In this document: one piece after another, positions 7,497-40,363 of the stretch
Numbering within the stretch: the stretch's first letter is position 1
How the letters are laid out: each line of letters begins with the position of its first letter
From: Holophagales bacterium UBA5704
GTDB taxonomy: Bacteria > Acidobacteriota > Thermoanaerobaculia > Multivoradales > UBA5704
Length of the DNA stretch: 64,000 nucleotides
NCBI GenBank assembly: GCA_002420005.1
Contig: DIHE01000126.1
Location: forward strand, 77,536 to 141,535
Direction of reading: 5' to 3'
Notes under the pieces: model-generated
Seen by the model: only the letters and a program-made list of their open reading frames with translations
Told to the model about the DNA's origin: nothing
Databases searched by the model: none
Made by a program: the position numbers and the translations under genes

Positions 7497-7675
7497 AGCC
7501 TCACCCTGGGAAGCCCTCAGTGCCGAGCCCGTGCCCCGGAGCTACCGCCCGCGCCCCCTGGGAGCGCTGGCGTCTCGCCGGCCTTCAAATAAATTGGGCC
7601 GAAGGCCCGACCCTGGGTTTGATGCACCACGCCCCGGGTTGAAACCCAATGCCCCGGGAGCTTCCCCGGCACCGG

Positions 7676-23765: not shown

Positions 23766-24833
<1,068 letters not shown>

Positions 24834-24945
24834 GAAAAGTCCGGCCGGCCGGCTCGCAAAATCCCTCGGCGCGCACCATTACCAGTGAGAGCGCTCTTGG
24901 CGCGGCAAGACCGCCGTGGCCCCTCTGGCGCGATGGAGGTTGAAG

Positions 24946-27027
24946 ATGAGCCGTCAGCTCACCTGGATGGTGTTGATTCTGCTCGCCTTCGGTGGTGTGG
25001 CCCAGGCTGCCCCCGAGGCCGGCGGTCCCACGGCCGCTTTGTATCCGGTGGTCGATGTCAACCGTGTGCAGTCCGTGGTCGGCCAGCAGCTCGACCTGAC
25101 ACGGATCGGGGAGGAGGACCTCGCGCGCGACCGGGAAGGCCTGCCGCCGCGGTTCGCGATCCCCGAGCGGGTGTCCTTGACCCCTGCCAACAGCGGCACC
25201 TGGGAAGACCTCGGCAACGGTTTGAAGCTCTGGCGCCTGCGCGTCATCGGCCGCGAGGGGACGAACTCCCTGAACCTCGGCTTCACCCGCTTCAAGATGA
25301 CGCCGAACAGCCGCGTGCTGTTCTACTCGACCGACGGCCGCGAGAGGACCCGCGCCTTCACCGCCGCGGACAACGAGGCCCACGGTGAGATGTGGACACC
25401 GGTGATCCCCACCCGCGACCTGATCGTGGAGCTCACCGTGCCCAAGGCGGAGGCCAAGGGGCTGCAGCTCCGGCTCGGCTGGATCAACCAGGGCTATCGC
25501 GGCTTCGGCACGATCACCGCCGACTCCTACAACAAGTCCGGAAGCTGCAACATGGACGTCGCCTGCCTCGACGCCGGAGACTCCTGGCGCGAGGAGATGC
25601 GGGCGGTGGGCGTGATCTCCACCGGCGGCTCGACGTTCTGCTCCGGCTCGCTGATCAACAACACGGCCGGCGACCGCAAGATGTACTTCATGACCGCCAA
25701 CCACTGCGGCATCACCGCGTCGAACGCCGCCTCTCTGGTGGTCTATTGGAACTACCAGAACTCCTTCTGCCGCACCCCGGGCAGCACCGCCAGCGGCCAG
25801 GCCGGCGACGGCAGCCTCGCGCAATTCCACACCGGGTCCTTCTTCCGCGCCGCGTATTCGCCTTCGGACTTCACCCTGGTCGAGCTGGACGATCCGGCCG
25901 TCACCGCCTACAACCACTACTGGGCGGGCTGGGACCGTTCGACGGGCGACTTCGCCTGCTCCGCCGCCTCTCCGTGCGCGGCGATCCACCATCCGTCGAC
26001 CGATGAGAAGCGGATCACCTACTCCACCACCAACACGGCGACGACCAGCTACAACAATCCGACGTCTCCCGGCGACGGCACCCATGTCTGGGCGCGCTGG
26101 GCGACCGATCCTCCCGGGCCCTTCACCGTGCCCGGTGTGACCGAGGGCGGTTCCTCGGGCTCGCCGCTCTACAACGCGGCCGGCCGTTTCATCGGCCAGC
26201 TCCATGGCGGCCCGTCCGCCTGTGGTGCCACCGGGACCAATCTCTCCGACTACTACGGCCGTTTCAGCATCTCCTGGACGGGCGGCGGCACGAACAGCAC
26301 CCGCGTGTCGAACTGGCTCGACGCCGGCAACACCGGGGCGACCACGACCAACGGCCTCGACACCGGCGGCGGTGGCTGCACGCCCCCCGCGGCGCCCACC
26401 GGCTTGACCGCCACCGCCGCGTCGCAGACCCAGGTCAACCTCTCCTGGACCGCCGTCTCCGGCGCCACCTCCTACACCATCTGGCGCTCGACGACCAGCG
26501 GCGGCCCCTACACCTCGGTCGGAACCTCCGCCACGACGTCCTTCTCGAACACCGGCCTGTCTTGCAACACCACCTACTACTACGTGGTGACCGCGTCGAA
26601 CGGGAGCTGCAGCTCCGGCAACTCGGCGCAGGCGTCGGCGACGACCTCGGTGTGCACGGCCTGCACCGCCACCACCGAGGTGGAGGCGAACAACACCCGC
26701 ACCGCGCCGCAGGTGATCTCGGGAACCTGCAACCAGATCTCCGGCACGTTCCTCAACGACTCCTCGACGCAGCAGAACGACTACTTCCGCCTGAGCCTGC
26801 CGGCCGGCGCGACCGTGACCGCGCTGCTCAACGGCCTCACGGTCGACTACGACCTCTACATCTACAACTCGACCACCGGCAGCGCCGTGGCCAGCTCGCT
26901 CAACGGTGGCACGACCGCCGACCAGGCGTCCTGGACCAACACGGGAGCCTCGGCGATCAACGTCTTCGTGCGCGTCTACCGCTACTCTTCGACCCGCACG
27001 ACGTATCAGCTCCGGGTCAGCTACTGA
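24946..27027 (+). CDS. secreted S1-family (lysyl-endopeptidase-like) serine protease with FN3 and pre-peptidase C-terminal (PPC) domains
   Basis: Signal peptide, TANHC (His), GGSSGSPL (Ser), an FN3-like SWTAVSGATSYTIWRS segment, and a PPC-like tail DYFRLSLPAGATV…YDLYIY. Confidence 0.75.
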   Translation: MSRQLTWMVLILLAFGGVAQAAPEAGGPTAALYPVVDVNRVQSVVGQQLDLTRIGEEDLARDREGLPPRFAIPERVSLTPANSGTWEDLGNGLKLWRLRVIGREGTNSLNLGFTRFKMTPNSRVLFYSTDGRERTRAFTAADNEAHGEMWTPVIPTRDLIVELTVPKAEAKGLQLRLGWINQGYRGFGTITADSYNKSGSCNMDVACLDAGDSWREEMRAVGVISTGGSTFCSGSLINNTAGDRKMYFMTANHCGITASNAASLVVYWNYQNSFCRTPGSTASGQAGDGSLAQFHTGSFFRAAYSPSDFTLVELDDPAVTAYNHYWAGWDRSTGDFACSAASPCAAIHHPSTDEKRITYSTTNTATTSYNNPTSPGDGTHVWARWATDPPGPFTVPGVTEGGSSGSPLYNAAGRFIGQLHGGPSACGATGTNLSDYYGRFSISWTGGGTNSTRVSNWLDAGNTGATTTNGLDTGGGGCTPPAAPTGLTATAASQTQVNLSWTAVSGATSYTIWRSTTSGGPYTSVGTSATTSFSNTGLSCNTTYYYVVTASNGSCSSGNSAQASATTSVCTACTATTEVEANNTRTAPQVISGTCNQISGTFLNDSSTQQNDYFRLSLPAGATVTALLNGLTVDYDLYIYNSTTGSAVASSLNGGTTADQASWTNTGASAINVFVRVYRYSSTRTTYQLRVSY

Positions 27028-27040
27028 TCTGCCCCCCCGC

Positions 27041-27072
27041 CGCCCGCCCCCTCGCCTTCCCGGGGGCGGGCG
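27041..27072. terminator. perfect 11-bp GC hairpin between convergent genes (bidirectional terminator candidate)
   Basis: CGCCCGCCCCC (27041-27051) pairs with GGGGGCGGGCG (27062-27072) around a 10-nt loop, followed by CCCTCCTTTC. Confidence 0.5.
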
Positions 27073-27094
27073 CCCTCCTTTCGATCCGGTCCCT

Positions 27095-28873
27095 TTACAC
27101 GAAGATCCGCGGTGGCTCTTGGGCCTTCGGGGCCTCGTCCGACTGGAGGAGGTTGCCTTCGACGTCCTGATAGCGCCCCTGGCCGACGTCGAGGAGGACG
27201 CGGTTGCGCCCGCGGCGCTTGGCTTCATAGAGGGCTTCGTCGGCGAAGAGGAGGAGCTCGGCGGCGGTCTTCGCGAGGACGCCGGGAGAGGAAGCCACTC
27301 CGGCGCTCATGGTGAGGGGGATGCGCTGCCCGCCGTGCTCGAAGGGGAGGTCCTGGATTCTCTGCCGGACCTGCTCGGCGATCGCGAGGCCCTGGCCGCC
27401 GTCCATGCCCTCCAGGAGGATCACGAACTCCTCGCCTCCGTAGCGGCAGCAGAGCGCTCCCTCCCAGGCGGTTTTGAAGACGGCGGCGGCGGCGACCAGG
27501 GCGGCGTCGCCGGCCGGATGCCCAAAGGTGTCGTTGATCTTCTTGAAGTGGTCCAGGTCGCAGAGGATGACCGCCATGGCCCCACCTTCTTCGGTCACCT
27601 GGGCGTGGACCTCGTGGAGCCGCTTCTCCAGGACGCGGCGCAGGACGGCTCCGGTCAAGGTGTCCTCGCGCGCCTCGCGGCCGGTCAGGCAGCGGCCCAC
27701 CGAGGCGCTCATCTGGGGCACCAGCCGGTCGAGCAGCTCGACGCCGGCGAGGTCGAGCTTGCGCGGATCGCACCACAGGCGCAGACGCCCGAGGAGCCGG
27801 CCGTCGCTGCGGAGCTGGCGCTCGACGATGTTCCACTGCGCCCGCCGGTGGACGCCGGGAAGGACCGGGGCATAGCGATCCGGCTCCGGGACGCCGGTGC
27901 GCAGCTCGCTCTCCGGACCTTTGGGTCCCGCCCACCAGCTCTTGAGCTCGCCGCCGGGCGCCATCAGCTCGAACTGGAACCAGTGGAATCTCACCAGCTC
28001 GCCGCTTTCGGTCTTCATGCGGTCGATCACGTCGACGATCTCGCGCTCGCCTTTGTCGACCATCCGCTTGCCGGCCCGCCGCAGGCGTTCCAGGTCGAAC
28101 GCGCGATGGTGGGAGCGTTCGTGAAGGACCCGGTTGCGCGCCGCCTCCAGGGCGAGCAGGGCACAGGCGGCGGCGAGCAGGGTGGTCAGGGTCCAGCCGG
28201 AGGTCTTCTGCACCGCGACCAGCACCCCTCCCAAGGCCCAGCCGAAGGCATCGAGGCCGAGCGGTGGGAGCAGCACCTTCCAGCGCGCAAGCACCGGGTG
28301 CTCGGGGCGCCGGATCTTGCCGTCGGCCGCTTCGAGCCCGGCCCAGACGAGGAGGTAGAGGAGACCGGAGGCGGTGGCGACCGTGGCGAGGGCGGTGCCA
28401 CGGGGGAACAGCACCCAGGTCAGGGCGGCGGCGAGGGTGGCGAGAACCGCGCGCCCGGCGGTCTCCAGGGAGCGGAGGAGACTCCGCCGGTCGGGCACCC
28501 CGTAGACCCCGCGGCGCCGGACCAGGCGCAGCAGCAGCTCGGCGGAGAGAAAGGACGCCGCGGCGAGCCCTGCCGCCGGAACGCCACCGGCTCCCTCCAC
28601 GATCAGTGGCAGGACGAGGGTCCCGAGGCCGACCGTGGACACCGAGCGGAACGGGCGGTGGCAGGCCGCGGCGGCTCCGGCCAGGATGAGGACGAGCAGA
28701 AGGCCGGTGGGCGGCAGCTCTTCCGCGCGCAGGGCGGGCACACGCACGGCGGCGGCGAGCGCCAGAAGGGCGCTCAGGATCGGCACGAGCGACGCCCCGA
28801 GCTCGCGAGGCAGGAGAGCGCGCTGCAGCAAGCGTGAAGGTCCCGGCACGTTTTGCCATGGTACGCGGTTCAC
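27095..28873 (-). CDS. membrane-bound diguanylate cyclase (GGDEF domain)
   Basis: About 8 TM helices, a central uncharacterised domain, and a C-terminal DHFKKINDTFGH…RYGGEEFVILL GGDEF domain. The start is uncertain (GTG at 28873 or 28849; there is no ATG). Confidence 0.75.
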   Translation of the reverse strand: MNRVPWQNVPGPSRLLQRALLPRELGASLVPILSALLALAAAVRVPALRAEELPPTGLLLVLILAGAAAACHRPFRSVSTVGLGTLVLPLIVEGAGGVPAAGLAAASFLSAELLLRLVRRRGVYGVPDRRSLLRSLETAGRAVLATLAAALTWVLFPRGTALATVATASGLLYLLVWAGLEAADGKIRRPEHPVLARWKVLLPPLGLDAFGWALGGVLVAVQKTSGWTLTTLLAAACALLALEAARNRVLHERSHHRAFDLERLRRAGKRMVDKGEREIVDVIDRMKTESGELVRFHWFQFELMAPGGELKSWWAGPKGPESELRTGVPEPDRYAPVLPGVHRRAQWNIVERQLRSDGRLLGRLRLWCDPRKLDLAGVELLDRLVPQMSASVGRCLTGREAREDTLTGAVLRRVLEKRLHEVHAQVTEEGGAMAVILCDLDHFKKINDTFGHPAGDAALVAAAAVFKTAWEGALCCRYGGEEFVILLEGMDGGQGLAIAEQVRQRIQDLPFEHGGQRIPLTMSAGVASSPGVLAKTAAELLLFADEALYEAKRRGRNRVLLDVGQGRYQDVEGNLLQSDEAPKAQEPPRIFV

Positions 28874-28910
28874 CCCGGAAGCTGCAATCGGAATCCGATA
28901 GACTGAAGCG

Positions 28911-30545
28911 ATGAAGCACACTGCGCCGCCGCGCCGCCGGAAGCTGAATGCCTGGGGATTCGAGGGCGTCTCGTTCTCGCCGCCGCGCCCTCTGCGGTCC
29001 TGGCTGGAGGAGCGCATCGGCCCGCCCGAGCCCCGGTCGGCGGTCGATCCCCGCTCGCTCCGCCTGCCCGCGCCCGCCCGTCTGCCGGATCTGCCGGTGC
29101 CAACCTCCGACGATCCGGCCGACCGGCTGCTGCATGCGCGCGGGCGCGGCTTCAGCGATCTGGTGCGCCTGCGCACCGGCACCCTGCCGGCGCTGCCCGA
29201 CGCCGTCGTACGGCCGGAGGATGCGACGGACGTCCAGGAGGTGCTGCGGATCTGCTCGCGCGCCGGGGTCCGCGTGATCCCCTGGGGCGGCGGCACCTCG
29301 GTGACCGGCGGGGTCAACACCCTGCCCTCCGCGGCGCCCACCGTGGTGCTCGATCTCGAACGGCTCTCCGGTCTGGTGGCGGTCGACGCCCGCTCCGGGC
29401 ATGCCCGGGTGCGCGCCGGCACGCTCGGTCCGGCGCTCGAAGCGGCGCTCGCGCCGCACCGCCTGACCCTCGGCCACTTCCCGCAATCGTGGGAGCTGTC
29501 GACCCTGGGCGGCTGGGTGGCCACCCGCTCGTCGGGCCAGGAATCGCTCGGCTTCGGCCGTATCGAGGACCTGGTGGCCGGCCTGGAGCTGGTCGCACCG
29601 GCCGGCCGGCTCTCTCTGCCGGCCCTCCCGGCCTCGGCCGCCGGCCCGGATCTGCGCCAGCTCGCGCTCGGCAGCGAGGGCCGATTCGGCGTGATCACCG
29701 AGGCCACTGTGCGCGTCAGCCCGCGGCCGGCGCGCCGCGCGGTCGAGGCGTTTCTCCTCCCTCAATGGGAGGACGGCGTCGAGGCTGTCCGCGAGATGGT
29801 CCTCGCCGGCCTGCCGCTGCACATGCTTCGTCTGTCCGATCCCACCGAGACGGAGGTGGGGCTGGCGACCGGGACGGGGGGCCATGCCTGGTCGCCGCTC
29901 GCCCGCGGCTGGCTGCGGCTGCGCGGCGCCGGCCCGGGCTCGTGCCTGCTGCTCTGCGGCGCCGCGGGGACGCCGCGGGAGATCCGCTGGACCCTGGGCG
30001 AGACGCGGCGGCTGCTCAAGAGATACCGCGCTGTGTCGCTCGGCGAGGGGCCGGGCCGGCGCTGGCTGCTCGACCGCTTCCGCCATCCCTACCTGCGCGA
30101 CGGCCTGTTCGACCTCGGCTGGGCCACCGACACCCTGGAGACCGCGGCGTCCTGGTCTGCGCTGCCCGGCCTCTATCGCGCGGTGCGGCTGGTCCTCGCC
30201 TCGACGCTGCCCAACGAGGAGGTGGCGGTGCTCTGCCACGTCTCCCACGCCTACCGCGACGGCGCCTCGCTCTACTTCACCTTCTTCTTCCGCGACGCCG
30301 AAGACCCCGAGGAGATGATCGCGCTCTGGGCCGCGCTCAAGCGGGCCGCCACCTCCGTCCTGCCGGCGGCGGCGGGCACGCTCAGCCATCACCATGGAAT
30401 CGGTTCCTGGCATGCCCCCTGGTATGCCCGCGAGGCCGGGACGGATGGCGTGCGGCTGCTCGCCGCCGCGGCCCGCGAGCTCGATCCGCAGGGAATCCTC
30501 AACCCCCACGTCCTCTTCGATCCGGTCGATCGCCTGGAGGTGTGA
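28911..30545 (+). CDS. FAD-linked oxidase, alkyldihydroxyacetonephosphate synthase (AGPS)-like
   Basis: N-terminal LNAWGFEG (compare WNGWGY of AGPS), HARGRGFSDLVRLRTG, and the FAD motif IPWGGGTSVTGG. Confidence 0.7.
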   Translation: MKHTAPPRRRKLNAWGFEGVSFSPPRPLRSWLEERIGPPEPRSAVDPRSLRLPAPARLPDLPVPTSDDPADRLLHARGRGFSDLVRLRTGTLPALPDAVVRPEDATDVQEVLRICSRAGVRVIPWGGGTSVTGGVNTLPSAAPTVVLDLERLSGLVAVDARSGHARVRAGTLGPALEAALAPHRLTLGHFPQSWELSTLGGWVATRSSGQESLGFGRIEDLVAGLELVAPAGRLSLPALPASAAGPDLRQLALGSEGRFGVITEATVRVSPRPARRAVEAFLLPQWEDGVEAVREMVLAGLPLHMLRLSDPTETEVGLATGTGGHAWSPLARGWLRLRGAGPGSCLLLCGAAGTPREIRWTLGETRRLLKRYRAVSLGEGPGRRWLLDRFRHPYLRDGLFDLGWATDTLETAASWSALPGLYRAVRLVLASTLPNEEVAVLCHVSHAYRDGASLYFTFFFRDAEDPEEMIALWAALKRAATSVLPAAAGTLSHHHGIGSWHAPWYAREAGTDGVRLLAAAARELDPQGILNPHVLFDPVDRLEV

Positions 30546-30546
30546 G

Positions 30547-32166
30547 ATGCTCGACCCCCTCTGGCGGCGGCGGGCGCTGGACGGGCTGGCCCAGCCGTTC
30601 GACCTGATCGTCCTGGGGGGCGGCATCACCGGCTGCGGGATCTTTCTCGACGCCTCCCAACGTGGCCTGCGCGTCCTCCTGCTGGAGCGGGGCGACATCG
30701 CCTCCGGCACCTCCTCGCGCTCCTCCAAGCTGATCCATGGGGGCTTGCGGTATCTCAAGCGGCTGCAGCTCCACGTCACCCGCCAGGCCGTCCGCGAGCG
30801 CGACTTGATGCTGGCGGTCGATCCCCACCTGGTCTGGCCGATCCGCTTTCTGTATCTGGTCTATTCCGGCGCCCGCCCCCCTGCCTGGCAGATGGAGATC
30901 GGCCTCCAGGTCTATGACCGGCTGAACCGCGGCCGGCGGCACCACCGGCGGCTCCCGACGGAGGAGCTCCTGGCGAGCGCGCCGGGCGTCGCGACGGCCG
31001 GGCTCCAGACCACCTTCGCGTACGGGGACGCGGTGACCGACGACGCCCGCCTGACCCTGGCGGTCGCCGCCACCGGCACCGGCTACGGGGGGTACCTCCT
31101 CACCCGGGCCGAGCTGGAGGACGGCCTGCGCACCACGGCCGGCCGGCTGAGCGGGGTGCGCTTTCGCGACCAGGAGACCGGCGAGGTCCACACCGCCCGG
31201 GCGTCTCTCGTGGTCAATGCCACCGGCGCGTGGGTGGACCTCGTCCGCCATCGCCTGGGGATCTCGGGAGCGCGCGTCCGCCCGTCGCGGGGCAGTCATC
31301 TCATCTTCGCGAGCGATCGCCTGCCGATCACCGAGGCGGTGACCCTCCCCTCTCCGGACGACGGACGCCCGGTGTTCTTCATTCCCCACCCGGAAGGGGT
31401 CCTGGCCGGGACGACCGACCTGTTCCACACGGGAGATCTGGACGATCCCCGCCCGTCCCCGGAGGAGGTGGGGTACCTCCTGCGCGCCGCGCAGACGGCC
31501 TTTCCCGGCCGGCAGATCGGTGCGGACGACGTCCGTGGCGCTTTCGCCGGAGTGCGTCCGATCGTCGACACGGGAGCGGCGAGCCCGTCGGCGGCGAGCC
31601 GCGAAGAGGCGTTGTGGGACGAGGAGGGCCTCCTCTCGGTGGCCGGCGGCAAGCTGACCACCTGGCGGGCGATCGCCGAGGAGGTGGTCGACCACGCCCT
31701 GCGCTTCCTGCCCTCGGAGCGCGCCCGCGAGGCGTCCCCCTGCGCCACCGCCGGCACCACGGTCGGTGCCCTGGCACCGCCTGATCTGGCGGAGCGGCTG
31801 CAAACAGTGCAGGGGATCGCCCCGGATGTCGCCGCCGGTCTGGCCCGCCGGCTCGGCGGCCTCTCCTGGCTCGCCGGGGCGGTGGCGCGGTCGCCGAGCG
31901 AGCTGCACCCGCTCCTGGACGGCACCGACCTCACGGCCGCCGAGGTGCGCGTCCATCTGCGGCACGGAGCGGTGGTGCACCTCGAAGACCTCCTGCTGCG
32001 CCGTGCCCGCTTCGGCCTCTGGGACCCCGCCGCCGCCCGCGCCCTGGTCCCGCGCCTCGCGCCGCTCTTTCAGGAAGAGCTCGCCTGGACCGCCGACCGC
32101 TGGGACCGGGAGACGGAATCCGCCGCCGGGGCGTTGGCCGCCTGGACGCCGGAGGGGGTGCGGTGA
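30547..32166 (+). CDS. glpD: FAD-dependent glycerol-3-phosphate dehydrogenase
   Basis: DLIVLGGGITGCG dinucleotide fold and SSRSSKLIHGGLRYL motif. The ATG lies 1 nt after the upstream stop. Confidence 0.85.
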   Translation: MLDPLWRRRALDGLAQPFDLIVLGGGITGCGIFLDASQRGLRVLLLERGDIASGTSSRSSKLIHGGLRYLKRLQLHVTRQAVRERDLMLAVDPHLVWPIRFLYLVYSGARPPAWQMEIGLQVYDRLNRGRRHHRRLPTEELLASAPGVATAGLQTTFAYGDAVTDDARLTLAVAATGTGYGGYLLTRAELEDGLRTTAGRLSGVRFRDQETGEVHTARASLVVNATGAWVDLVRHRLGISGARVRPSRGSHLIFASDRLPITEAVTLPSPDDGRPVFFIPHPEGVLAGTTDLFHTGDLDDPRPSPEEVGYLLRAAQTAFPGRQIGADDVRGAFAGVRPIVDTGAASPSAASREEALWDEEGLLSVAGGKLTTWRAIAEEVVDHALRFLPSERAREASPCATAGTTVGALAPPDLAERLQTVQGIAPDVAAGLARRLGGLSWLAGAVARSPSELHPLLDGTDLTAAEVRVHLRHGAVVHLEDLLLRRARFGLWDPAAARALVPRLAPLFQEELAWTADRWDRETESAAGALAAWTPEGVR

Positions 32167-32432
32167 GGGCGGCTCGGGCGGTTGAGACACCTGCGCGCCG
32201 CTCTGCAGACCACACATCGCGTTGCATGGGGGTGAGGACTCCGAGCGAGGCACTCCCGAGGCTTCCAAGAGATTCCCGAGGCGCCTCTGGGGACAGGAAT
32301 TCCTTCGCGCACCTGCGGTAGAATAGGGAGATGAAAACGCTGTCGACTCTGCGCAGGCCGGTGGCCCTCAGCCGGCTTGCGACCTGCTGCCCTTTTAGAT
32401 TTAGATAACTCTGACTTGGCGTGGCGTGCATC

Positions 32433-35135
32433 ATGTCTATCATCACCAATGAAATGACCTTCGACTTCGACGGGCTGATCCAGCTCCTCGCCGGCCACCT
32501 CTATTCCGAGAAGAAGGTCTTCATCCGCGAGCTCATCCAGAACGCCCATGACGCCATCCAGCGCCGGGCGGTAAAGGACCCGTCATTCAATCGAGAGCAG
32601 GGTCACATCGACATCCTGACCGACCTGACCGCCTCGCCTGCGCGCATCATCTTTCGCGACAACGGCCTCGGCATGAGCGTCGAGGACCTGGAGGAGTTCC
32701 TCTCCACGATTGGGAAGTCCGGCACCAAGGCAGCCAGGGACGAAGCGCCGGAGGTGATCGGCCAGTTCGGCATCGGCTTCCTGTCCGGCTTCGTCGTCGG
32801 CGCGCGTGTCGAAGTTCGCACCCGCTCCTGGGAAGCGGCGCCGGATCAGGCCTGTCTGTGGGAGAACTCCGGGAACAAGGACTACACCATCACGCCCTGC
32901 ACGCTCGCCTACGTGGGGACCGAGGTTACCGTTCACCTTCGCTCCGCCGAAGATCGTGGCCTGTTGCACGAGGATGCAGTCAAGAAGGTCATCCGTACCT
33001 ACGCGGACATGCTTCGCATTCCCATCCACCTGAACGACCCAGGGCACCACAGCGCCGCGATTAACACCATGGTGATGCCGTGGGAACGCAATGGCATTTC
33101 CGAAACGGAGATGCGCTTCGACAGCATGATCTATCTGGAAAGAACGGTGCCCGACAGCGTTCTCGAGGTGATCCCGATTCGCATCAATGATCCTGCTGCC
33201 GACGGCAAATCCACCCTTCATGCGGAGGGTCTGCTCTACATTACCCGCACTCGCTTGATCGCGACGGATGCCCCCCGCACCGTGCGGGTTTTCCTTAAGC
33301 GCATGTTCCTGTGCGAGGAAGCCAAGGAGATTCTGCCGCCCTGGGCACGCTTCATCAATGGCATCATCAATACGCGCAGTCTTTCGCCCAACGCTGCCCG
33401 TGACAACTTCACCCGCGACGCCAGTTTTACATCTCTACGTGATCGCCTCGGCGACCTCATCGTGGACCACTTCGAGCATCTGCGGGAAAAGGAACCCCAG
33501 CGCCTCTCAGAGATCCTTGCATATCACGACCTTGGCATCAAAGCCGCCTGCCACTACTACGACCCGTTCTTCGACAAGTTCGCCCATCTCCTGGAATGGC
33601 GGATCAATGCCAAGTCTGCCGCCGCCCGTGACCGCAACCGGCCGAGCGGTCGCCGTGTCCTCAGCGCCGATATTGGGGCCAATTACACTTGGGCGACTCT
33701 GCCGGAGATCCTTGCCGCCCTCCCCTCCCCGGAAGGCGGCGGTGCCAAGCGCTTCCCCTGCTTCACCACCAGCAGCTCCGCCAACCAGTTCTTCGAGATG
33801 GCCGATGCCGCCGGAACCACCGTAGTGGACGCCAGTTACTATTTCGAGGCGGAGCTGCTCAAAACCTGGGCCGAACGGCGCAAAGCGGTGCTCTCTCTCG
33901 TCTATGTAGACCGCGAGGACGACCCCGCGGTCTTCCGCGAGATCGATCCCGCCCAGGACCGCGCCGTCCGTGCCCTCGCCCAACAGATGTCTCACTACCT
34001 CCGGCCTGGTGGCACCGGTCGCCTGCGTGTCGAACCGCGGCGTTTCCAGCCGGAGTCCCTGCCCGCCGTGCTCAAGAGCAGCGAGGTCGCCCAGGGCAGC
34101 AGGAAGGCCCGTAGCATCCTCAGCGATCCGAATAGCCCATCTGATCTTCGCGCAATGGCGGAGGAGATGCTCCTCCTCAGCCGAAATGCCGACATGCGGA
34201 TGAGTATCAATGCGGCCAATCCTCTCATCCGCACCCTCGCCAGCCTCGCCGAGATCAATCCCGAGGACGACGACCTGCTCCACCTCATGCAATGTGTTTA
34301 TAACGATGCCATCCTCTACAACCAGGAGCTCATGACCCCGCGCAATGCGCAGATTTTTCACGAGCAGTTCCAGCGGCTCATGAACAAGTCCCTCCAGTTC
34401 CTGGTGGAAAAGGGCGACCTCGCCCGCGAACGCGCAGAGCTGGACAAACAACGCCGCCAGACGGAGACCAAACGGAAGCGTGAGCGGAAGCATCTCACCG
34501 CCTTCCTGATGACTCCCTTCGCCAAGGAGTTCGACACTGCCCGCGAAGCCGTCCGCCTCGCGGTCGAAGACCGCCTCGGCTGCGAGCTGCGCACAGCCGA
34601 TCAGAAGACCTTCGAGGACCTTATCCGTGGCAACGTCGAGGCGCACCTCGACGATGCAGACTTTTTTATTGCCGATGTCACCGGAGCCAATCCCAACGTC
34701 ATGATGGAATTGGGAGCCGCCCTGTACGGCCGCGGCCATCAGCCAAGCCTTCTCATCGCCCGCGTCGCGAAGAGCGGCGACAAGCCGGAGCTCCCTGCGG
34801 ATCTCGCCGGGCACATTACCGGCGGCCTCTACGTCGCGAGCCAGAGCGAGGTGGAGATTGCTGATTTGCTGGAGGAAGGCTTCCGCAAGCACGAGCGGCT
34901 GGGCATTCTGCTCAAGCGCGAAGGCCGCGAGGACTACATCTCGCCGCAAACCCTTCGTGCCTGGACGAGGGACATCCTCATTTCGAAGACCCTCTACGAA
35001 CGGCTCAGCGACGCTTATCCCACTGTGAGCGCCTGGAGGAAGGTCAATGAGAAACAACTGGAGATCCAACTGATCGGAGAAGCTGATCTCGCCTCCGTGG
35101 TGCTGAGGCGCATCAAGGAAAACCTTCCCGGCTGA
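32433..35135 (+). CDS. Hsp90/HtpG paralogue (GHKL ATPase plus middle and C-terminal domains) fused to a C-terminal TIR/nucleoside-2-deoxyribosyltransferase-like domain
   Basis: LLAGHLYSEKKVFIRELIQNAHDA, DNGLGM, GQFGIGFLSGF and RVFLKRMFLCEEAKEILPPWARFINGIINTRSLSPNAARD parallel the Hsp90 N and middle signatures. A C-terminal coiled-coil is followed by AFLMTPFAKEFD…ADFFIADVTGANPNVMMELGAAL. GC is much lower than the flanks. Alternative GTG start at 32421. Confidence 0.75.
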   Translation: MSIITNEMTFDFDGLIQLLAGHLYSEKKVFIRELIQNAHDAIQRRAVKDPSFNREQGHIDILTDLTASPARIIFRDNGLGMSVEDLEEFLSTIGKSGTKAARDEAPEVIGQFGIGFLSGFVVGARVEVRTRSWEAAPDQACLWENSGNKDYTITPCTLAYVGTEVTVHLRSAEDRGLLHEDAVKKVIRTYADMLRIPIHLNDPGHHSAAINTMVMPWERNGISETEMRFDSMIYLERTVPDSVLEVIPIRINDPAADGKSTLHAEGLLYITRTRLIATDAPRTVRVFLKRMFLCEEAKEILPPWARFINGIINTRSLSPNAARDNFTRDASFTSLRDRLGDLIVDHFEHLREKEPQRLSEILAYHDLGIKAACHYYDPFFDKFAHLLEWRINAKSAAARDRNRPSGRRVLSADIGANYTWATLPEILAALPSPEGGGAKRFPCFTTSSSANQFFEMADAAGTTVVDASYYFEAELLKTWAERRKAVLSLVYVDREDDPAVFREIDPAQDRAVRALAQQMSHYLRPGGTGRLRVEPRRFQPESLPAVLKSSEVAQGSRKARSILSDPNSPSDLRAMAEEMLLLSRNADMRMSINAANPLIRTLASLAEINPEDDDLLHLMQCVYNDAILYNQELMTPRNAQIFHEQFQRLMNKSLQFLVEKGDLARERAELDKQRRQTETKRKRERKHLTAFLMTPFAKEFDTAREAVRLAVEDRLGCELRTADQKTFEDLIRGNVEAHLDDADFFIADVTGANPNVMMELGAALYGRGHQPSLLIARVAKSGDKPELPADLAGHITGGLYVASQSEVEIADLLEEGFRKHERLGILLKREGREDYISPQTLRAWTRDILISKTLYERLSDAYPTVSAWRKVNEKQLEIQLIGEADLASVVLRRIKENLPG

Positions 35136-35152
35136 CCTTCCCTGTAGTCCTC

Positions 35153-36283
35153 ATGGCCTACCACGACGAACTTTTTAAGCAAGGTCGGCAAGCCGGCTTG
35201 GCTGATCGCGTGGCTGAAGCGGCGCTGCTCTACCGCAGTGCCGCTTCAGCCGCCCTTGAAGTCGGCGACCGTACCGCATGGTTCAAGTGCATGGTGCGGG
35301 CAGCATCTGCCACAGGCGACAAAGGCGACATACGAGCCAGCCTCGCCCTGCTTCTAGAAGCTCGCGAGTCGGAGCCGGAGGATGCCCCGCAGTTCGAGGC
35401 ATGGTCGGCTCGGAGAGAAATTTTTTTCATCACACAGTCGATCCGCCCAGAACGATCTCGGCTGAAACAACTCCTCGCCGACCTCCGGTTTTACGCCACA
35501 ACCCACAGTGCTCGGGCAGCCGAACTTCTCTTACTCGAAGGGAGTCTGAATTCCTTTTGCGGAGACTGGCGTACCGCCCTCGCCTGTTTCGAGACCGCAT
35601 GGCAGGCCAAAGATGGACACGACCTCAAAGCGTACAACGCTTACATTGCCGCCTCGCACTGCCTGCGACTCGGCCAGCCTTCCGCCTGCCGGGATTGGAT
35701 TTTCGCGCTTGACCAATGCGAGGATAAATCGGTTCCCCGCTGGAGCGCTGAGAGCACCCTCCTTCTCGCCCGCGCCGAGGGCCAACCTTTCGCTACCCTC
35801 CTATCAAATCTGCGCACTTACACTGACCGCGCAGCCGGTGTCCAGCGCGCCGATACCGCCGACATTGTACGTGAGCTGGTCGCCCGCACCCACCTTCTCG
35901 ATCCCAATGCGGGCGACCCTGCTGCCGACTTTCACCCAAGCCGCTCCGAGCTCCGGCAGGCACCCAGAAACCGGCAGGTTGTCCACAGCCGCTACGACGC
36001 CCACTTGCTCCACCTCGACTACCGGCTCGCCTGCCTCCGCTACGTCGCCAGCGTTCCGGCCGTGGATGATTTTTATTACTATCAACCCCAGCAAGTGCCG
36101 GCCAGCCTCGTACCAACAGACCTCGCTCAGTTTCAACGCCGGCTCCACAAAGCCCGTGCCGCTGTCGCCAGCACCCTCCGCTACGCCCGCCACCTCGATA
36201 CCCTCCTCGAATGCGACTACCGCCAACGTGAGGTCCAGGCCCGTAGCGAGCGGATTGAGGAGATCGCGCGGGCAGTCGGTTGA
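35153..36283 (+). CDS. uncharacterised all-alpha (TPR-like?) protein, likely co-transcribed with the Hsp90 paralogue
   Basis: It starts 17 nt after the upstream stop on the same strand and shares the low GC. The sequence is helix-rich and Ala/Leu/Arg-rich with no motif I recognise. Confidence 0.55.
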   Translation: MAYHDELFKQGRQAGLADRVAEAALLYRSAASAALEVGDRTAWFKCMVRAASATGDKGDIRASLALLLEARESEPEDAPQFEAWSARREIFFITQSIRPERSRLKQLLADLRFYATTHSARAAELLLLEGSLNSFCGDWRTALACFETAWQAKDGHDLKAYNAYIAASHCLRLGQPSACRDWIFALDQCEDKSVPRWSAESTLLLARAEGQPFATLLSNLRTYTDRAAGVQRADTADIVRELVARTHLLDPNAGDPAADFHPSRSELRQAPRNRQVVHSRYDAHLLHLDYRLACLRYVASVPAVDDFYYYQPQQVPASLVPTDLAQFQRRLHKARAAVASTLRYARHLDTLLECDYRQREVQARSERIEEIARAVG

Positions 36284-36503: not shown

Positions 36504-36533
36504 TTGACGCAGCATACGGCAAGGCCGTAGAGT
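36504..36533 (+). promoter_or_regulatory. possible promoter TTGACG-18 nt-TAGAGT for the toxin-antitoxin operon (predicts a leaderless GTG start)
   Basis: -35 at 36504-36509 and -10 at 36528-36533. The GTG start at 36541 is 7 nt after the -10. Confidence 0.3.
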
Positions 36534-36540
36534 CTGACCT

Positions 36541-36855
36541 GTGTACACGGTCGTTGAGACACCTCTCTTCCAGCGGCTCGCCGACGACCACTGGTCGGAC
36601 GAGGAGCGGAGCGCCTTCGTGGCATTCATCGCGGCCCATCCTGAGGCCGGCGAGGTGGTCCCGGGCTCAGGAGGGGTGCGCAAGGTTCGCTGGGGCCTCG
36701 GCGGGCGTGGTAAACGCGGCGGCGTGCGCGTGATCTACTTCAACCGGCTGACGGCGGGTGAGATCTGGCTTCTCGTCTTGTACGCGAAGTCGGAGGCCGG
36801 GAACATCCCGGCTCACGTCTTGCGGCAGATCAAGGAGGACATTGAGCATGGCTAA
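36541..36855 (+). CDS. type II toxin, RelE/HigB-2-like
   Basis: …GSGGVRKVRWGLGGRGKRGGVRVIYFNRLTAGEIWLLVLYAKSE… is typical of HigB-2/RelE-family toxins. The toxin precedes the antitoxin. Confidence 0.75.
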   Translation: MYTVVETPLFQRLADDHWSDEERSAFVAFIAAHPEAGEVVPGSGGVRKVRWGLGGRGKRGGVRVIYFNRLTAGEIWLLVLYAKSEAGNIPAHVLRQIKEDIEHG

Positions 36856-37156
36856 GGTTTCCGGGAAATCCAGGCTCGCCACCTCCGGCGAGGAGTTGGG
36901 CGAGCAGCTTCTGCAAGCGGTGCGGGAGATGAAGGCCGGATTGCGCGGCCGTGTGCATACGCCGGAAAGGTCCAGCCTCGTCGAGGCCCGGCTGAGGACG
37001 GGACTCTCGCAGGCCTCGTTCGCGGTTCTGATGGGGGTTTCCGTGCGCACGCTGCAAGACTGGGAGCAAGGCCGCCGAGAGCCTTCCGGCGCGGCGAAGA
37101 CTCTCATCAAGGTGGCGACCCGGCATCCGGAGGTTCTGCAAGAGCTCGCGCTGTAA
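36848..37156 (+). CDS. type II antitoxin, XRE-HTH (HigA-2-like)
   Basis: ARLRTGLSQASFAVLMGVSVRTLQDWEQGRREPSGAAKTLI. It overlaps the toxin gene by 8 nt (ATGGCTAA). Confidence 0.75.
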   Translation: MAKVSGKSRLATSGEELGEQLLQAVREMKAGLRGRVHTPERSSLVEARLRTGLSQASFAVLMGVSVRTLQDWEQGRREPSGAAKTLIKVATRHPEVLQELAL

Positions 37157-37294
37157 GATCTCCGGCGGCTCCTCGGTTCGATCCGCTCGTCAGGTCGGCG
37201 CGGGCCTCAGGCGTCCGCACGGCCAGGCACGACGTGAGTCTGGTCCATGAGCGGCTGCGAGCTGCGCGAGAGGGCGCCCTCGGACCCGCCGCCC

Positions 37295-37801
37295 CTAGTC
37301 CACCTCGGCCTTGATCGACAGCGCCAGAAGCGAGCCGTCGGCCTGGCGGGTTCCGCGGCCTTCGGCGCGGGTGGGACGGCCGGCGGCCACGGAGCGGGCG
37401 ATCTGGGCGAGGGAGTGGAGGTCGCCGCGCGCCTCCCACCGGGTCTGGGCGTTGACCACGATCCGGGTGCCACCGGCGAGGGTCAGGGAGCTCTGGCCGG
37501 CGGTGGTCACGGCTCCTTCGAACTCTTTGCCGGCCCGCGGCGCCTTGCCGCCTCCCTTCCCCCCCTTGCCTCCTTTGCCCCCTTTGCCACCACGGTTGTC
37601 GCCGCCGTTGTCGTCGTTGCCCCGGGTCTGGTTGTCGTCGGTGAGAGCGGCTGTCGAGCTGGCGGTGGTCGAGAAGGCCGGGGCGTCGTCGGTGAACGCG
37701 GGTTCCGTGGGGCTGGAGCCCTGCGAGCAGCCGATGGTGCCGAGCGCGAGGGTGGAGAGGGAGAGCAAAGCGATAAGCTGGAGGGAGCGATGGCGGTTCA
37801 T
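37295..37801 (-). CDS. lipoprotein with a (GGK)n low-complexity linker
   Basis: Lipobox LALGTIGC after a signal peptide, then GGKGGKGGKGGKGGGK, then a C-terminal beta-rich domain. Confidence 0.65.
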   Translation of the reverse strand: MNRHRSLQLIALLSLSTLALGTIGCSQGSSPTEPAFTDDAPAFSTTASSTAALTDDNQTRGNDDNGGDNRGGKGGKGGKGGKGGGKAPRAGKEFEGAVTTAGQSSLTLAGGTRIVVNAQTRWEARGDLHSLAQIARSVAAGRPTRAEGRGTRQADGSLLALSIKAEVD

Positions 37802-37810
37802 GGTATCTCC

Positions 37811-40363
37811 TTGTGGTTTGGTCGAGTTCTGTTCCGTCTGTTGAGACAGGCGAAGGCCGCCGGTGGAACAAACTTCTTTTGCGGTCTTCTGGTGCTGGCT
37901 CTGGTGGCCTCTCCTGTCGCCGGGCAGACGCTCGACCAAGCCGTTGCGCTGCACCAGGCGGGGCGCCTGCGCGAGGCGCTCCAGGCCTACCGGCGGATCG
38001 CCTCCGCCCACGCAGGTCAGGAGCCGGGGCTGGCCGCGGCGGCGCTCAACAACGCCTGCGTGCTGCAGCAGGACCAGGGCGCCCTGCGCGCCGCGCTGCC
38101 GGACTGCGAGGAGGCGCTGCGCTTGCGCCGGATCGAAGGAGACCCCTTGTCGATCGCCGAGACGGTGAACAACCTGGGGCTGATCCTGGAGACCCTGGGC
38201 CGCACCGGCGAGGCGGAGCGCCACTACCGCGAGGCGCTGGCGATCAACCGCAAGCTCGGCGAAGCCGAATCGGTGGCGATGAACCTGGGCAACCTCACCG
38301 CGATCGCGGTCCAGAAGGGCCGCTATTCCGAGGCCATGCGCCTCTCCACCGAGGCCGCCACGGTGGCCGCCCGCCATCCGGATGCGCCCTGGGCCGAGGA
38401 GCAAGGGCAGATCGCGCGGATCAACCAGAGCGTCGTGCTGCGCAAGGTGGGCGCCTACCGGGAGGCGCTCGATCTCTCTCGGGATCTCCTGAAAAGCAAC
38501 CGGCTGGACCCGCGGCGGCGTGCCGCACTGCTGGTGAATACCGGCGTCTTCTATCGCAACCTGGGAGATCCGGTGAGCGCGGTGGAGAGCTTCCGCGCCG
38601 CCATCGCGAGCTATCGCGCGCTGGGGGACACCGCGGGGCTGTCCAACGCCTGGCTCAACCTCGGGATCGCCCTGCATCTGAATCTGGCCCGCCCGCGCGA
38701 GGCCGAGGCCGCCTACCGGGAGGCGCTCCGTCTCGCCGAAGCGGACGGCAATCAGATCGAGGCGGTCGAGGATCTGTTCTATCTCGGCCGCCTCCTCCTG
38801 GCGCAGGGCCGGCTGGACGAGGCGGAGGCGGCCTTCCGGCGCTGCCTGGACGGGGCGACGCAGAGCGGCTCGGTCGATGGGCGGTGGTCGGCCCGCGAGG
38901 GGCTGGGGCGGATCGCCGCGGCGCGCGGGGACCTGCCGGGCGCCCTGGCGCACCTCCTCGGTGCCCTGGACGAGATCGAGCGGGTACGCGCCGGCCTCGA
39001 CCGCAGCGGCTGGCGGGCCGGCTATTTCGGCGACAAGCGCTCCGTTTATGCCGCGACGGTGGACGTGCTATGGCGGCTCGCCCGGCTCCGGCCGCGGGAA
39101 GGCTTCGCCGGCCGCGCCCTGGAGGTGGTGCAGCGCGCCAAGGCGCGCGACCTGCTCGATGCCCTGGGACCCGGGGGCGCTGCGTTGACCCCGGCCACCG
39201 CCGCCGCGATCACCGCCCGGGCCGACGGCACCCTGCTCGAATATTTCCTGAGTGAGGACCGCCTCTATCTCTGGACGATCCGTCGCGGTGCGCTGCAGAT
39301 GGCGGACCTCGGCCCCAAGACCCCCGTGGCGGCGGACGTTCTGCGGGTGCACCGGGCGCTCGCCGGGGGGACCGAGCCGGACGCGGCGGCGGTCACGCGG
39401 CTCTCCCGCACGCTCCTCGGGCCGGCCGGTCCTCTGGGTGCGAAGGGGGAGACGCTCCGCATCGCGCCCGACGGGCTGCTGCACTATCTCCCGTTCGAGA
39501 TCCTCGCGGCGCCCGCGGCCGACGGCGCGCCCCTGGTCGAGCGCCACGCCATCTCCTACCTGCCGAGTGCCTCCCTGCGGGGGGCCGGTGACGCCACCGC
39601 CTCCCCCACCCTCCGCCTCGCCGGCTTCGGCGCCCCGCTTCCCTCGCGCCCGACCGCCGGGGCAACCCTTGTGGTGGCCCAACCCCTACCGGCCGCCGAG
39701 CGGGAGCTCACCGCCATCGGGAGCCTCCTGGGCGGATCGAGCGAGCGGCACCTGGGCGCACAAGCGACTGAGCGGGCCTTCCGCCAGGTGTTCGCCCGGG
39801 GCGCCCGGGTGGTGCACTTCGCCACCCACACCGTGGTGGAAGAACGGCCGGGCGGTGGCGCCTCCATCCTCCTCACCGCAGCGGGCGGAGACGACGGCCT
39901 CCTGCAACCGCGGGAGATTGCCGGCCTCACCGGCTCGTGTGACCTGGTGGTGCTCGCGGCCTGCAGCACGTCCCTCGGAGCGGGGGAGGAAGGAGGAGCC
40001 CTGGTCTCCCTCACCGGCTCCTTCCTCGCCGCCGGAGCCCCCGCCGTCGTGGCCACCCTCTGGGACGTGGGCGATGCCGCGACCGCCGTCTTCATGGAGC
40101 AGCTCTACGCCCAGCTCGGCCGCGGCCTTCCTCCGGACGAAGCCCTGCGCCGGGCGAAGCTGCGCCTGCGCGCCGATCCGCGCTGGAACCGGCCTGGCCT
40201 CTGGTCGGGCTATGTCCTGGTGGGAGAGGCGCCGCCGGTGGCGCCGCGCCGGGAGCTGCGGCTGGCCCTGATCTGGGGAGGCGCGGCGGGGCTCCTGCTG
40301 CTCGGCCTCGCCGCGCGCCGCCTCACTCGAAGACGATCGCGCCGTTCTCCATCGCCAGCTTGA
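37811..40363 (+). CDS. TPR-repeat plus CHAT (caspase-like) domain protein with a C-terminal TM anchor
   Basis: Multiple TPR-like repeats (…AERHYREALAINRKLGE…). CHAT His/Cys dyad contexts are VVHFATHTV and DLVVLAACSTSLG. The tail is hydrophobic. The start is uncertain (TTG at 37811; the ATG at 37790 would overlap the divergent gene). Confidence 0.7.
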   Translation: MWFGRVLFRLLRQAKAAGGTNFFCGLLVLALVASPVAGQTLDQAVALHQAGRLREALQAYRRIASAHAGQEPGLAAAALNNACVLQQDQGALRAALPDCEEALRLRRIEGDPLSIAETVNNLGLILETLGRTGEAERHYREALAINRKLGEAESVAMNLGNLTAIAVQKGRYSEAMRLSTEAATVAARHPDAPWAEEQGQIARINQSVVLRKVGAYREALDLSRDLLKSNRLDPRRRAALLVNTGVFYRNLGDPVSAVESFRAAIASYRALGDTAGLSNAWLNLGIALHLNLARPREAEAAYREALRLAEADGNQIEAVEDLFYLGRLLLAQGRLDEAEAAFRRCLDGATQSGSVDGRWSAREGLGRIAAARGDLPGALAHLLGALDEIERVRAGLDRSGWRAGYFGDKRSVYAATVDVLWRLARLRPREGFAGRALEVVQRAKARDLLDALGPGGAALTPATAAAITARADGTLLEYFLSEDRLYLWTIRRGALQMADLGPKTPVAADVLRVHRALAGGTEPDAAAVTRLSRTLLGPAGPLGAKGETLRIAPDGLLHYLPFEILAAPAADGAPLVERHAISYLPSASLRGAGDATASPTLRLAGFGAPLPSRPTAGATLVVAQPLPAAERELTAIGSLLGGSSERHLGAQATERAFRQVFARGARVVHFATHTVVEERPGGGASILLTAAGGDDGLLQPREIAGLTGSCDLVVLAACSTSLGAGEEGGALVSLTGSFLAAGAPAVVATLWDVGDAATAVFMEQLYAQLGRGLPPDEALRRAKLRLRADPRWNRPGLWSGYVLVGEAPPVAPRRELRLALIWGGAAGLLLLGLAARRLTRRRSRRSPSPA

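Follow-up and report, generated by a model that had tools for sequence, protein, structure and literature searches.

A bacterial Hsp90-family protein fused to an N-glycosidase-like module and paired with a predicted TPR protein: a candidate two-gene conflict system

Introduction

Bacterial conflict systems centered on a nucleoside triphosphatase (NTPase) combine TIR/DRHyd, peptidase, and EAD parts, and the central NTPase in them is MoxR, a STAND ATPase, or a GTPase (Kaur et al., 2020, PMC7159879). A GHKL ATPase controls the defense effector in the Shedu protein VcSduA (GHKL-DUF4263; PMC12137116), and an N-terminal GHKL together with a C-terminal toxic-type effector is likewise found in SLFN-pAgo-GHKL (bioRxiv 10.64898/2026.05.29.728809) and in TmtA of the PADLOC database. 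The TIR effectors of CBASS, Pycsar, and STAND systems are controlled by a STAND or CD-NTase pathway, and in BcTir/Tpr a TIR protein is paired with a tetratricopeptide repeat (TPR) protein (bioRxiv 10.1101/2023.05.26.542521). The present study deals with two adjacent genes, termed gene A and gene B, in a stretch of 64,000 nucleotides (the window) from contig DIHE01000126.1 of Holophagales bacterium UBA5704, a member of the Acidobacteriota. Gene A encodes an Hsp90-family protein that continues into an N-glycosidase-like domain and a helical tail (together, the module), and gene B encodes its predicted TPR partner. The logic of an NTPase switch combined with a repeat-protein partner and a TIR-like effector is of a known kind; what is new is that an entire Hsp90 chaperone would act as the switch and that a TPR partner is dedicated to it.

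The protein encoded by gene A has the N-terminal GHKL and the C-terminal toxic-type effector in common with VcSduA (PMC12137116), SLFN-pAgo-GHKL, and TmtA, but these possess the GHKL module only, followed by other middle regions and by effectors unlike that of gene A, whereas gene A contains the whole three-domain Hsp90 and is accompanied by an obligatory TPR partner gene. Its module occupies the terminal effector position of a larger switch protein, as do the TIR effectors of CBASS and Pycsar, with Hsp90 in the place of the NTPases that control those systems; no cyclase, other signal-generating gene, or SAVED/STING-type sensor was identified in the core pair or among the annotated neighbors. 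The pairing of TIR and TPR in BcTir/Tpr is similar, but without a chaperone. With the systems of Kaur et al. (2020), the present loci share DRHyd/TIR-like, Trypsin_2, Trypco1, CHAT, EAD8, and TPR parts and a similar bias toward filamentous or social hosts (cyanobacteria, actinomycetes, Chloroflexi, and myxobacteria). The central NTPase differs, and the term 'Hsp90' occurs nowhere in the text of that paper (PMC7159879).

Eukaryotic Hsp90 works with TPR co-chaperones such as Hop/Sti1, P58IPK, and Tom70, and together with SGT1 in NLR immunity. To our knowledge, few clients of bacterial Hsp90 have been found, and we know of no TPR co-chaperone of a bacterial Hsp90, nor of the use of one by canonical HtpG. 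PADLOC-DB v2.0.0 contained no model covering the pair; the only matches were partial ones on gene A, with the TmtA models at residues 17-134 (5e-14) and with the CBASS TIR effector model at residues 710-783 (2.5e-6), and there were none on gene B. The architecture was not found described in full-text literature searches, although the library searched is incomplete and absence from it is not proof. The initial annotation, which was made from the sequence alone, likewise knew of no described defense system with this composition.

Results

Gene A Encodes a Complete Hsp90

The coordinates of the two genes, their parts, and their closest neighbors are collected in Table 1. The open reading frame (ORF) of gene A is open from 32421 (904 amino acids, up to 35135 on the + strand). 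Translation from the ATG at 32433 gives 900 amino acids; the protein would be 4 residues longer if it started at the in-frame GTG at 32421. The database cluster representative P0001 is 100% identical to the gene A protein and is 900 amino acids long, and the ATG is therefore the likely start.

Table 1. Features of the locus, in positions of the window.
Feature	Positions	Strand	Extent	Evidence or remark
Gene A: Hsp90-family protein with N-glycosidase-like module	32433-35135	+		ORF scan; Pfam HSP90 and HATPase_c_3; NCBIfam PRK14083
Hsp90 core	32433-34397	+	residues 1-655	N-terminal GHKL ATPase, middle, and C-terminal dimerization domains; PRK05218 alignment
Charged K/R/E-rich linker (FLVEKGDLARERAELDKQRRQTETKRKRERKH)	34398-34493	+	residues 656-687	low conservation
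N-glycosidase-like alpha/beta domain, NDT/DNPH1/DRHyd/TIR-like fold	34494-34838	+	residues 688-802 (115 amino acids)
Helical tail	34848-35132	+	residues 806-900 (95 amino acids)	about seven short helices; invariant W868
Gene B: predicted TPR-solenoid partner	35153-36283	+	376 amino acids	ORF scan, AlphaFold2, Foldseek, profile
RelE/HigB-like toxin neighbor	36541-36855	+	104 amino acids	Pfam RelE PF06296 at 8.8e-5, below cutoff
Helix-turn-helix (Xre/MqsA/NadS-like) antitoxin neighbor	36848-37156	+	102 amino acids	8-nucleotide overlap with the toxin gene

The gene A protein matched Pfam HSP90 with 57.5 bits (cutoff 24.4) and HATPase_c_3 at 1.3e-9. The NCBIfam model for 'HSP90 family protein' (PRK14083) was matched at 1e-99 with 334.7 bits, below the equivalog cutoff of 455, and HtpG (PRK05218) at 2e-70 with 237.8 bits, below the equivalog cutoff of 371; these profile scores place the protein within the Hsp90 family but outside the HtpG equivalogs. 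Residues 11-654 were aligned with positions 4-614 of the 614 positions of PRK05218, and since this alignment reaches both ends of the profile, all three Hsp90 domains are present. The Bergerat-fold motifs were located at residues 33-41 (ELIQNAHDA, with E33 and N37), 76-81 (DNGLGM, with D76), and 110-116 (the GQFGIGF lid), and the middle-domain motif NAARDNF at residues 320-326, in which the catalytic-loop Arg is R323. In an alignment of about 110 homologs, the ATP-site motifs (ELIQNAHDA, DNGxGM, and GQFGIGFLS) and the Arg of AARDNF were at least 90% conserved. The ATPase is very probably functional owing to this conservation, and gene A encodes an intact Hsp90 that is probably ATPase-competent and dimeric. 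It is similar to HtpG and PRK14083 in the GHKL motifs, the middle-domain Arg, the C-terminal domain, and the end-to-end alignment, but deviates from them in a 245-residue C-terminal extension (linker, N-glycosidase-like domain, and tail), in its TPR partner gene, and in its patchy spread.

Some of the Hsp90 fusions (P0042, P0046, P0047, P0049, and P0092; for example, L040:10001-12964) carry an extra N-terminal HTH_3 domain of the Xre type, which hints at autoregulation or DNA binding.

The C-Terminal Module Has an N-Glycosidase-Type Fold

The tertiary structure of the module (229 residues) was predicted with AlphaFold2 from an alignment of 36 sequences. The model consisted of a five-stranded alpha/beta domain and a helical bundle, with a mean predicted local distance difference test score (pLDDT) of 92.8 and a predicted template modeling score (pTM) of 0.88; the tail helices reached a pLDDT of at least 96, and at the start of the module only a short helix of lower pLDDT (61) was predicted. 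When the model was compared with the PDB using Foldseek, the top 50 matches were all NDT, DNPH1/Rcl, or the CMP N-glycosidase BcmB, with E-values from 5e-4, a Foldseek probability of 1.00, and target TM-scores of 0.5-0.7. A library of viral structures returned a CMP/hmCMP hydrolase, NDT, and the CAP12/Pycsar TIR protein.

Among the 36 members of the alignment, PF10137 (CAP12/Pycsar TIR) matched 29 (best 3.7e-7) and PF05014 (Nuc_deoxyrib_tr) matched 16 (best 1.4e-3). In the comparison with the CAP12/Pycsar TIR family and with the TIR effectors of CBASS, Thoeris, and STAND-Avs, PF10137 is thus the most frequent Pfam match of the family, and weak matches to it are already listed in the database entries of some relatives. 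This similarity indicates relatedness at the superfamily level only, and the structural matches favor NDT/DNPH1 instead of canonical TIR. By its fold, the module falls into the NDT/DNPH1/TIR-like group, but it passes no curated family threshold.

NDT, DNPH1 (Rcl), and BcmB-MilB, which were essentially the sole high-ranking structural matches, share the alpha/beta fold with the gene A domain, and the Glu in the conserved ExG motif of this domain pairs with that of ELG in Rcl; the sequence similarity is marginal (1.4e-3 in Pfam and, for the family profile against Rcl/DNPH1 among PDB sequences, an E-value of 0.005). These are stand-alone metabolic enzymes, whereas the gene A domain is fused to large scaffolds and is followed by the 95-residue tail. 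In the profile alignment, NVMxELG of the family lies over VGYELG of Rcl, which places E759 on the Glu of ELG. It thereby corresponds to the covalent nucleophile of Rcl/DNPH1 and NDT. E759 is nearly invariant (at least 90% in the 36-member alignment). The motifs FLMTPF (691-696) and NPNVMMELGAA (753-763) were identified in gene A, and F691, P695, N734, H738, N755-V756-M757, and LPxD (787-790) are also nearly invariant in the family. The structural check proposed in the initial annotation hence came out in favor of an enzymatic fold: in the predicted structure, the N-glycosidase-type fold and the key Glu are confirmed.

For the tail, no significant match was found in Pfam or among PDB sequences, and only sub-threshold matches to Sigma70_r4 and DEK_C were noticed in two of the 36 members. 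It always accompanies the N-glycosidase-like domain as one unit, with profile matches spanning positions of about 5-227 in proteins of many lengths. These results are in agreement with the reading of gene A in the initial annotation, which had described a protein of roughly 900 amino acids with all the hallmarks of Hsp90, a TIR/deoxyribosyltransferase-like domain following a K/R/E-rich segment, and a further C-terminal tail without an assigned family.

Gene B Is a Predicted TPR Superhelix

Gene B follows gene A after 17 nucleotides in the same orientation (+). The protein from the window itself showed no match in the Pfam, PADLOC, or NCBIfam libraries. A family profile built from 29 sequences matched the designed CTPR among PDB sequences at 3.6e-7, and also IFIT1, alpha-SNAP, and Sec72, and TPR Pfams were present in 13 of the 29 family members. 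The AlphaFold2 model, built on 21 fairly close sequences, had a pLDDT of 93.2 and showed 17 helices in a single solenoid. Its best geometric matches in Foldseek were APC5 (TMq 0.73), domain III of MalT (0.64), and Rap/RRNPP receptors; LGN, P58IPK, Tom70/71, and CTPR were also in the list. Gene B is thus modeled as a TPR superhelix, and the predicted solenoid is similar to TPRs that sense ligands, MalT domain III and Rap among them. Invariant motifs specific to the family are present in the C-terminal third, namely GDPxxxxHPxR (254-264), YRLAxxR (290-296), VDDxYY (304-309), and LDxxLxCxxRQxEV (348-361).

The initial annotation had correctly placed a 376-residue helix-repeat protein 17 nucleotides downstream of gene A, but its description as a protein with no recognizable motif has to be revised in view of the model and the profile. 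Its remark on the TPR co-chaperones of eukaryotic Hsp90, made for an all-alpha partner, is sharpened by the prediction of a TPR protein. The Hsp90/TPR pairing is alike in both cases, and P58IPK and Tom70/71 are among the structural neighbors of gene B. Gene A has no MEEVD-type tail, and gene B has its own motifs in the C-terminal third. No evidence was found for common descent of gene B with eukaryotic TPR co-chaperones, and the resemblance would be a functional analogy at most.

Genes A and B Form a Conserved and Co-Diverging Unit

A search of a word-indexed database with gene B returned only 23 partner homologs, to which a later profile search of the same database added none. The number was small because distant partners are visible only via their neighborhoods: in distant hosts, a gene of about 380 amino acids without a Pfam match adjoins the Hsp90 fusion, and it was found to be homologous to gene B (2e-66 in a metagenome-assembled genome (MAG) of Planctomycetaceae, 1e-46 in Microcoleus, and 9e-22 in Nonomuraea). 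Loci were therefore gathered by neighborhood look-ups and by a scan for the back-translated pattern NPNVMxELGA with one genome per species, and all of them were screened with three individual profiles, one each for Hsp90 core, module, and partner. The pattern scan also gave seven loci without an Hsp90 fusion (L011, L012, L017, L019, L021, L027, and L028).

Of 28 distinct loci that could be assessed, 26 had the partner directly beside the Hsp90 fusion. The hosts of the pair represent at least nine distinct lineages, with a patchy distribution across phyla: Acidobacteriota, Planctomycetota, Cyanobacteria, Actinomycetota (Streptomyces and Nonomuraea), Chloroflexota, and Abditibacteriota, as well as Methylococcaceae, Chromatiaceae, and Xanthomonadales of the Gammaproteobacteria, Alphaproteobacteria, and Myxococcales. 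No partner was detectable at the remaining two of the 28 loci, a very divergent copy in Ideonella (L033) and a locus in Ferruginibacter (L015). The gene order is mostly A-B, with B-A in cyanobacteria and Chloroflexi, and the two genes overlap in L002 and L004. One Microcoleus MAG harbors two copies of the system on separate scaffolds (L009 and L031). Identity to the window proteins falls together for genes A and B (Spearman 0.73, p 0.003, n=14), and the mean identity decreases from the Hsp90 core (52%) to the module (39%) and the partner (32%), which is the fastest evolving part. On these sequence comparisons, genes A and B are taken as one conserved, co-diverging unit.

The Hsp90 fusion on the Ferruginibacter chromosome is broken up into one ORF of 433 and one of 401 amino acids (L015:2979-5599, - strand) and may be a decaying copy. 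One protein (L041/P0147) had been considered as a non-Hsp90 module protein beside the partner, but the Hsp90-core profile revealed a contig-truncated Hsp90 fusion, and this candidate was rejected.

The Module Occurs on Other Scaffolds

An exhaustive search of 1.84 billion representatives with the module profile gave 430 clusters at E <= 1e-10 in which both the domain and the tail are present. Many of the matches of medium length are probably fragments of Hsp90 fusions. Other architectures included Trypsin_2-module, module-Trypsin_2, module-EAD8-Trypsin_2, Clp_N-module, and BspA-type LRR-module. The domain and tail thus form a combinatorial module that is mobile between scaffolds.

In Microcoleus, Oscillatoriaceae, and Chloroflexi, a trypsin-module gene is organized in one operon with the partner and the Hsp90 fusion, and in the Chloroflexi locus L038, CHAT and Trypco1 genes come before this operon. 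The accessory trypsin domain matched the PADLOC models for the protease effectors of Lamassu, RT-protease, and Avs1b. Trypsin_2-module genes lie directly upstream of partner and fusion at L002:5585-6850, L009:1240-2547, L030:3-1256, and L038:7579-8847. In a second Microcoleus arrangement (L031:3229-5280), a 684-residue module-EAD8-Trypsin_2 protein comes after an Hsp90 fusion and a partner-like gene. At L044:209-3358, a 501-residue module-Trypsin_2 protein precedes an unannotated 346-residue gene, non-homologous to the TPR partner, after which a putative restriction endonuclease of the Uma2 type is encoded. The protein P0194 (2620 amino acids) has a STAND-like ATPase region (AAA_22/ATPase_2, around 1970-2170) and the module at 2392-2610.

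Genomic Contexts of the Pair

Nine neighborhoods were inspected at +/-8-10 kb, and the evidence from them is qualitative. Conflict or mobile genes were present in five of the nine (L005/L006, L038, L004, L002, and the window). The Planctomycetaceae island L005/L006 contains two TIR_2 genes, a patatin, LD_cluster2, an excisionase-type helix-turn-helix (HTH) gene, and an integrase; L038 contains CHAT, Trypco1, PIN/Phd, HigB/HTH, and a Cas4-like nuclease, with the HigB/HTH pair 0.9 kb from the system; L004 a TIR_2-WD40 protein; L002 a large helicase pair; and the window a toxin-antitoxin pair and a TPR-CHAT gene. These contexts are suggestive of a defense role. The neighborhood analysis that had been proposed in the initial annotation therefore gave a clear answer for the linkage to the partner and a divided one for the conflict or mobile setting, about half of the neighborhoods being ordinary.

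In the Planctomycetaceae island (L005:11780-12139, 16023-16628; L006:14172-15366), a TIR_2 gene of 119 amino acids stands directly after the partner and is accompanied by the second TIR_2 gene and the patatin. The LD_cluster2 gene there is SLOG-like, the integrase is of the phage type, and a methyltransferase gene is also present. Four unannotated upstream genes (254-731 amino acids) of the island had almost no PADLOC matches. Small DUF433 genes (7475-7786 and 12395-12739) stand on either side of the pair in L001, the closest relative on a complete contig (Acidobacteriota, 5.8 Mb). DUF433 proteins are often antitoxin-like.

Discussion

From the architecture and the linkage of the two genes, we infer a defense role for the pair. 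Genes A and B would constitute, with a chance judged slightly better than even, a horizontally spread two-gene conflict module, probably anti-phage and of the abortive-infection type, that works roughly as outlined here. Hsp90 is a dimer joined C-terminally, and its N-domains come together upon ATP binding. In the dimers of NDT and DNPH1, the active sites are shared between the subunits, and TIR NADases depend on contacts within an oligomer. The Hsp90 dimer of gene A would hold two enzyme domains just past its dimerization domain, and the ATP-driven clamp cycle, set by the TPR partner, would decide whether these two domains form an active pair. The partner could serve as a sensor, an adaptor, or an inhibitor. 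An infection cue would set the system off, e.g., a phage protein to which the TPR solenoid binds or which Hsp90 takes up as a client, and the output would be the cleavage of an N-glycosidic bond in NAD+ or in a (deoxy)nucleotide, leading to metabolite depletion or to the release of a signal. Since dNMPs, hmdUMP, and (hm)CMP are the substrates of the closest structural relatives of the module, its output may be directed at nucleotides instead of depleting NAD+. In the cyanobacterial and Chloroflexi versions, trypsin-type proteases with the module could add a proteolytic arm. The presence of the module on trypsin, EAD8-trypsin, LRR, Clp_N, and STAND-like proteins matches the combinatorial pattern of conflict systems (PMC7159879). 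A more specific form of the proposal, in which the Hsp90 paralog is an immune receptor that takes phage 'clients' via its TPR co-chaperone and in which clamp closure activates the N-glycosidase on NAD+ or (modified) nucleotides, is tentative and on the whole unlikely.

Several observations weigh against a conflict module with an N-glycosidase output. The module from the window reached 14.6 bits against PF10137, below the cutoff of 24.7, and the window protein had no match to PF05014 above threshold in the Pfam scan. We take Tyr13 (beta1) and Asp69 (general acid) of Rcl as the catalytic residues for comparison. The beta1 Tyr of NDT/DNPH1 is replaced by Phe in FLMTPF of the family, and the column of Asp69 is occupied by Val735, with the invariant Asn734 one residue off and His738 one helical turn on. 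The make-up of the active site is therefore different from that of NDT/DNPH1, and the chemistry of the module may differ, or the domain may bind instead of cleaving. In the islet of the window, there was no integrase and no nearby tRNA, and repeats were at chance level only; in four of the nine wide neighborhoods (L037, L039, L040, and largely L001), the genes are of ordinary metabolic or regulatory kinds only. The module had no match in the phage collection searched and one weak partial match in the plasmid collection (46% of the module, 31% identity, 2e-6).

The ligand-binding members of the TIR/SLOG/DRHyd fold (PMC7159879) also bear on a different explanation, that of a specialized proteostasis or stress module in which an Hsp90 paralog works with a dedicated TPR co-chaperone and, in some lineages, with a protease that has the docking module in common with it, to fold or triage particular clients, and in which the N-glycosidase-like domain senses a nucleotide or NAD to tune the chaperone. 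The intact Hsp90 core is the most conserved part of the system (mean 52% identity), the structural neighbors of gene B include the co-chaperones P58IPK and Tom70/71, and chaperone, protease, and adaptor together form a classic quality-control layout, with Clp_N on one module protein; the ordinary half of the neighborhoods would also suit such a device. It is nevertheless considered unlikely, in view of the patchy occurrence across phyla, the low-GC islet in the window, the two copies in one MAG, and the toxin-antitoxin, TIR_2, patatin, CHAT, and integrase genes that adjoin several loci. The fusion of the module to EAD8, LRR, and a STAND-like giant, the resemblance of the accessory protease to defense effectors, and the nearly invariant Glu at the nucleophile position likewise speak for conflict rather than for quality control.

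The tight two-gene operon in either gene order, the faster evolution of the partner than of the enzyme protein, the bona fide toxin-antitoxin pairs adjoining the system in the window and in L038, and the N-terminal HTH of some members, which could autoregulate, would be expected of a toxin-antitoxin-like or addiction pair, with the N-glycosidase module as a constitutive toxin, the TPR protein as antitoxin, and Hsp90 as a scaffold or stabilizer, without phage sensing. A 655-residue ATPase with all its catalytic motifs conserved would, however, be a costly scaffold, a solenoid of 376 residues and of the ligand-binding type is not a small labile antitoxin, and the extra trypsin-module genes fit poorly with a simple toxin-antitoxin logic. 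This explanation is held to be quite unlikely; it also overlaps with a conflict module, as many such systems defend anyway. That gene A is a housekeeping HtpG with an accessory C-terminal domain, beside a functionally unrelated gene, is very improbable: the end-to-end HtpG alignment, the annotation of homologs as 'molecular chaperone HtpG' in the source databases, and the lack of another Hsp90 within the 64-kb window in the profile screen are set against scores below both NCBIfam equivalog cutoffs, a co-diverging partner kept in 26 of 28 loci across phyla, two copies in one Microcoleus MAG, and a locus GC below that of the surroundings. The reading of the initial annotation as a candidate sensor/effector conflict system is hence upheld for architecture and linkage, and for the defense function, it stays what we infer from them.

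The finding is that of an Hsp90 hard-wired to an enzyme domain of TIR/deoxyribosyltransferase fold and accompanied by a co-evolving TPR protein, recurring in at least nine lineages. If the pair is an immune module, chaperone-type ATPases would be added to the switches that control immune effectors (STAND, MoxR, ABC, and GHKL), the fused enzyme would provide a tractable system for reading the conformational cycling of Hsp90, and a possible bacterial parallel to the Hsp90-dependent immune receptors of plants and animals would be at hand. If the immune-receptor form of the proposal is true, it would be the first chaperone-centered anti-phage system and the first partnership of Hsp90 and a TPR protein in prokaryotes, comparable to the Hsp90-TPR co-chaperone machinery behind eukaryotic NLR immunity. 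Even as a proteostasis device, the pair would constitute the first case of a bacterial Hsp90 that has a TPR co-chaperone of its own.

Neighboring Genes in the Window

The guanine-plus-cytosine (GC) fraction was 0.61-0.65 over 32-37 kb and roughly 0.70-0.77 in both flanks, so the low-GC islet noted in the initial annotation was borne out by the scan of the window. The HigBA-like module that had been reported next to the pair is well supported on the antitoxin side, where the ORF matched HTH_3 (8e-9) and MqsA_antitoxin (6e-8) in Pfam and, in NCBIfam, TIGR03830 (MqsA-type, 2e-12) and NadS (1e-9), both below cutoff; the toxin is supported weakly (Table 1). A promoter-like site at 36504-36533, ahead of the RelE/HigB-like ORF, suggests that the toxin-antitoxin pair is its own transcription unit, and the pair is probably independent of genes A and B. 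Directly after it, at 37247-40363 (+), lies a gene for a TPR-CHAT (caspase-like) protein of 1038 amino acids, with CHAT at 1.3e-62 and many TPR matches; a CHAT gene also adjoins the system in the Chloroflexi locus L038.

Both strands contain numerous overlapping ORFs of great length at 24800-32500 and elsewhere, e.g., an Arg/Pro/Gly-rich one of 1184 amino acids at 27225-30779 (-); these are the usual artifact of a GC content of about 72% and not genes. Upstream of gene A, the window contains genes of the FAD-linked oxidase and glycerol-3-phosphate-dehydrogenase types. Also upstream, a 703-residue Trypsin_2 and fibronectin-III protein is encoded at 24916-27027 (+); it is without the module in the profile screen and is therefore probably unrelated to the system. 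An 870-residue GGDEF protein is encoded at 27095-29707 (-).

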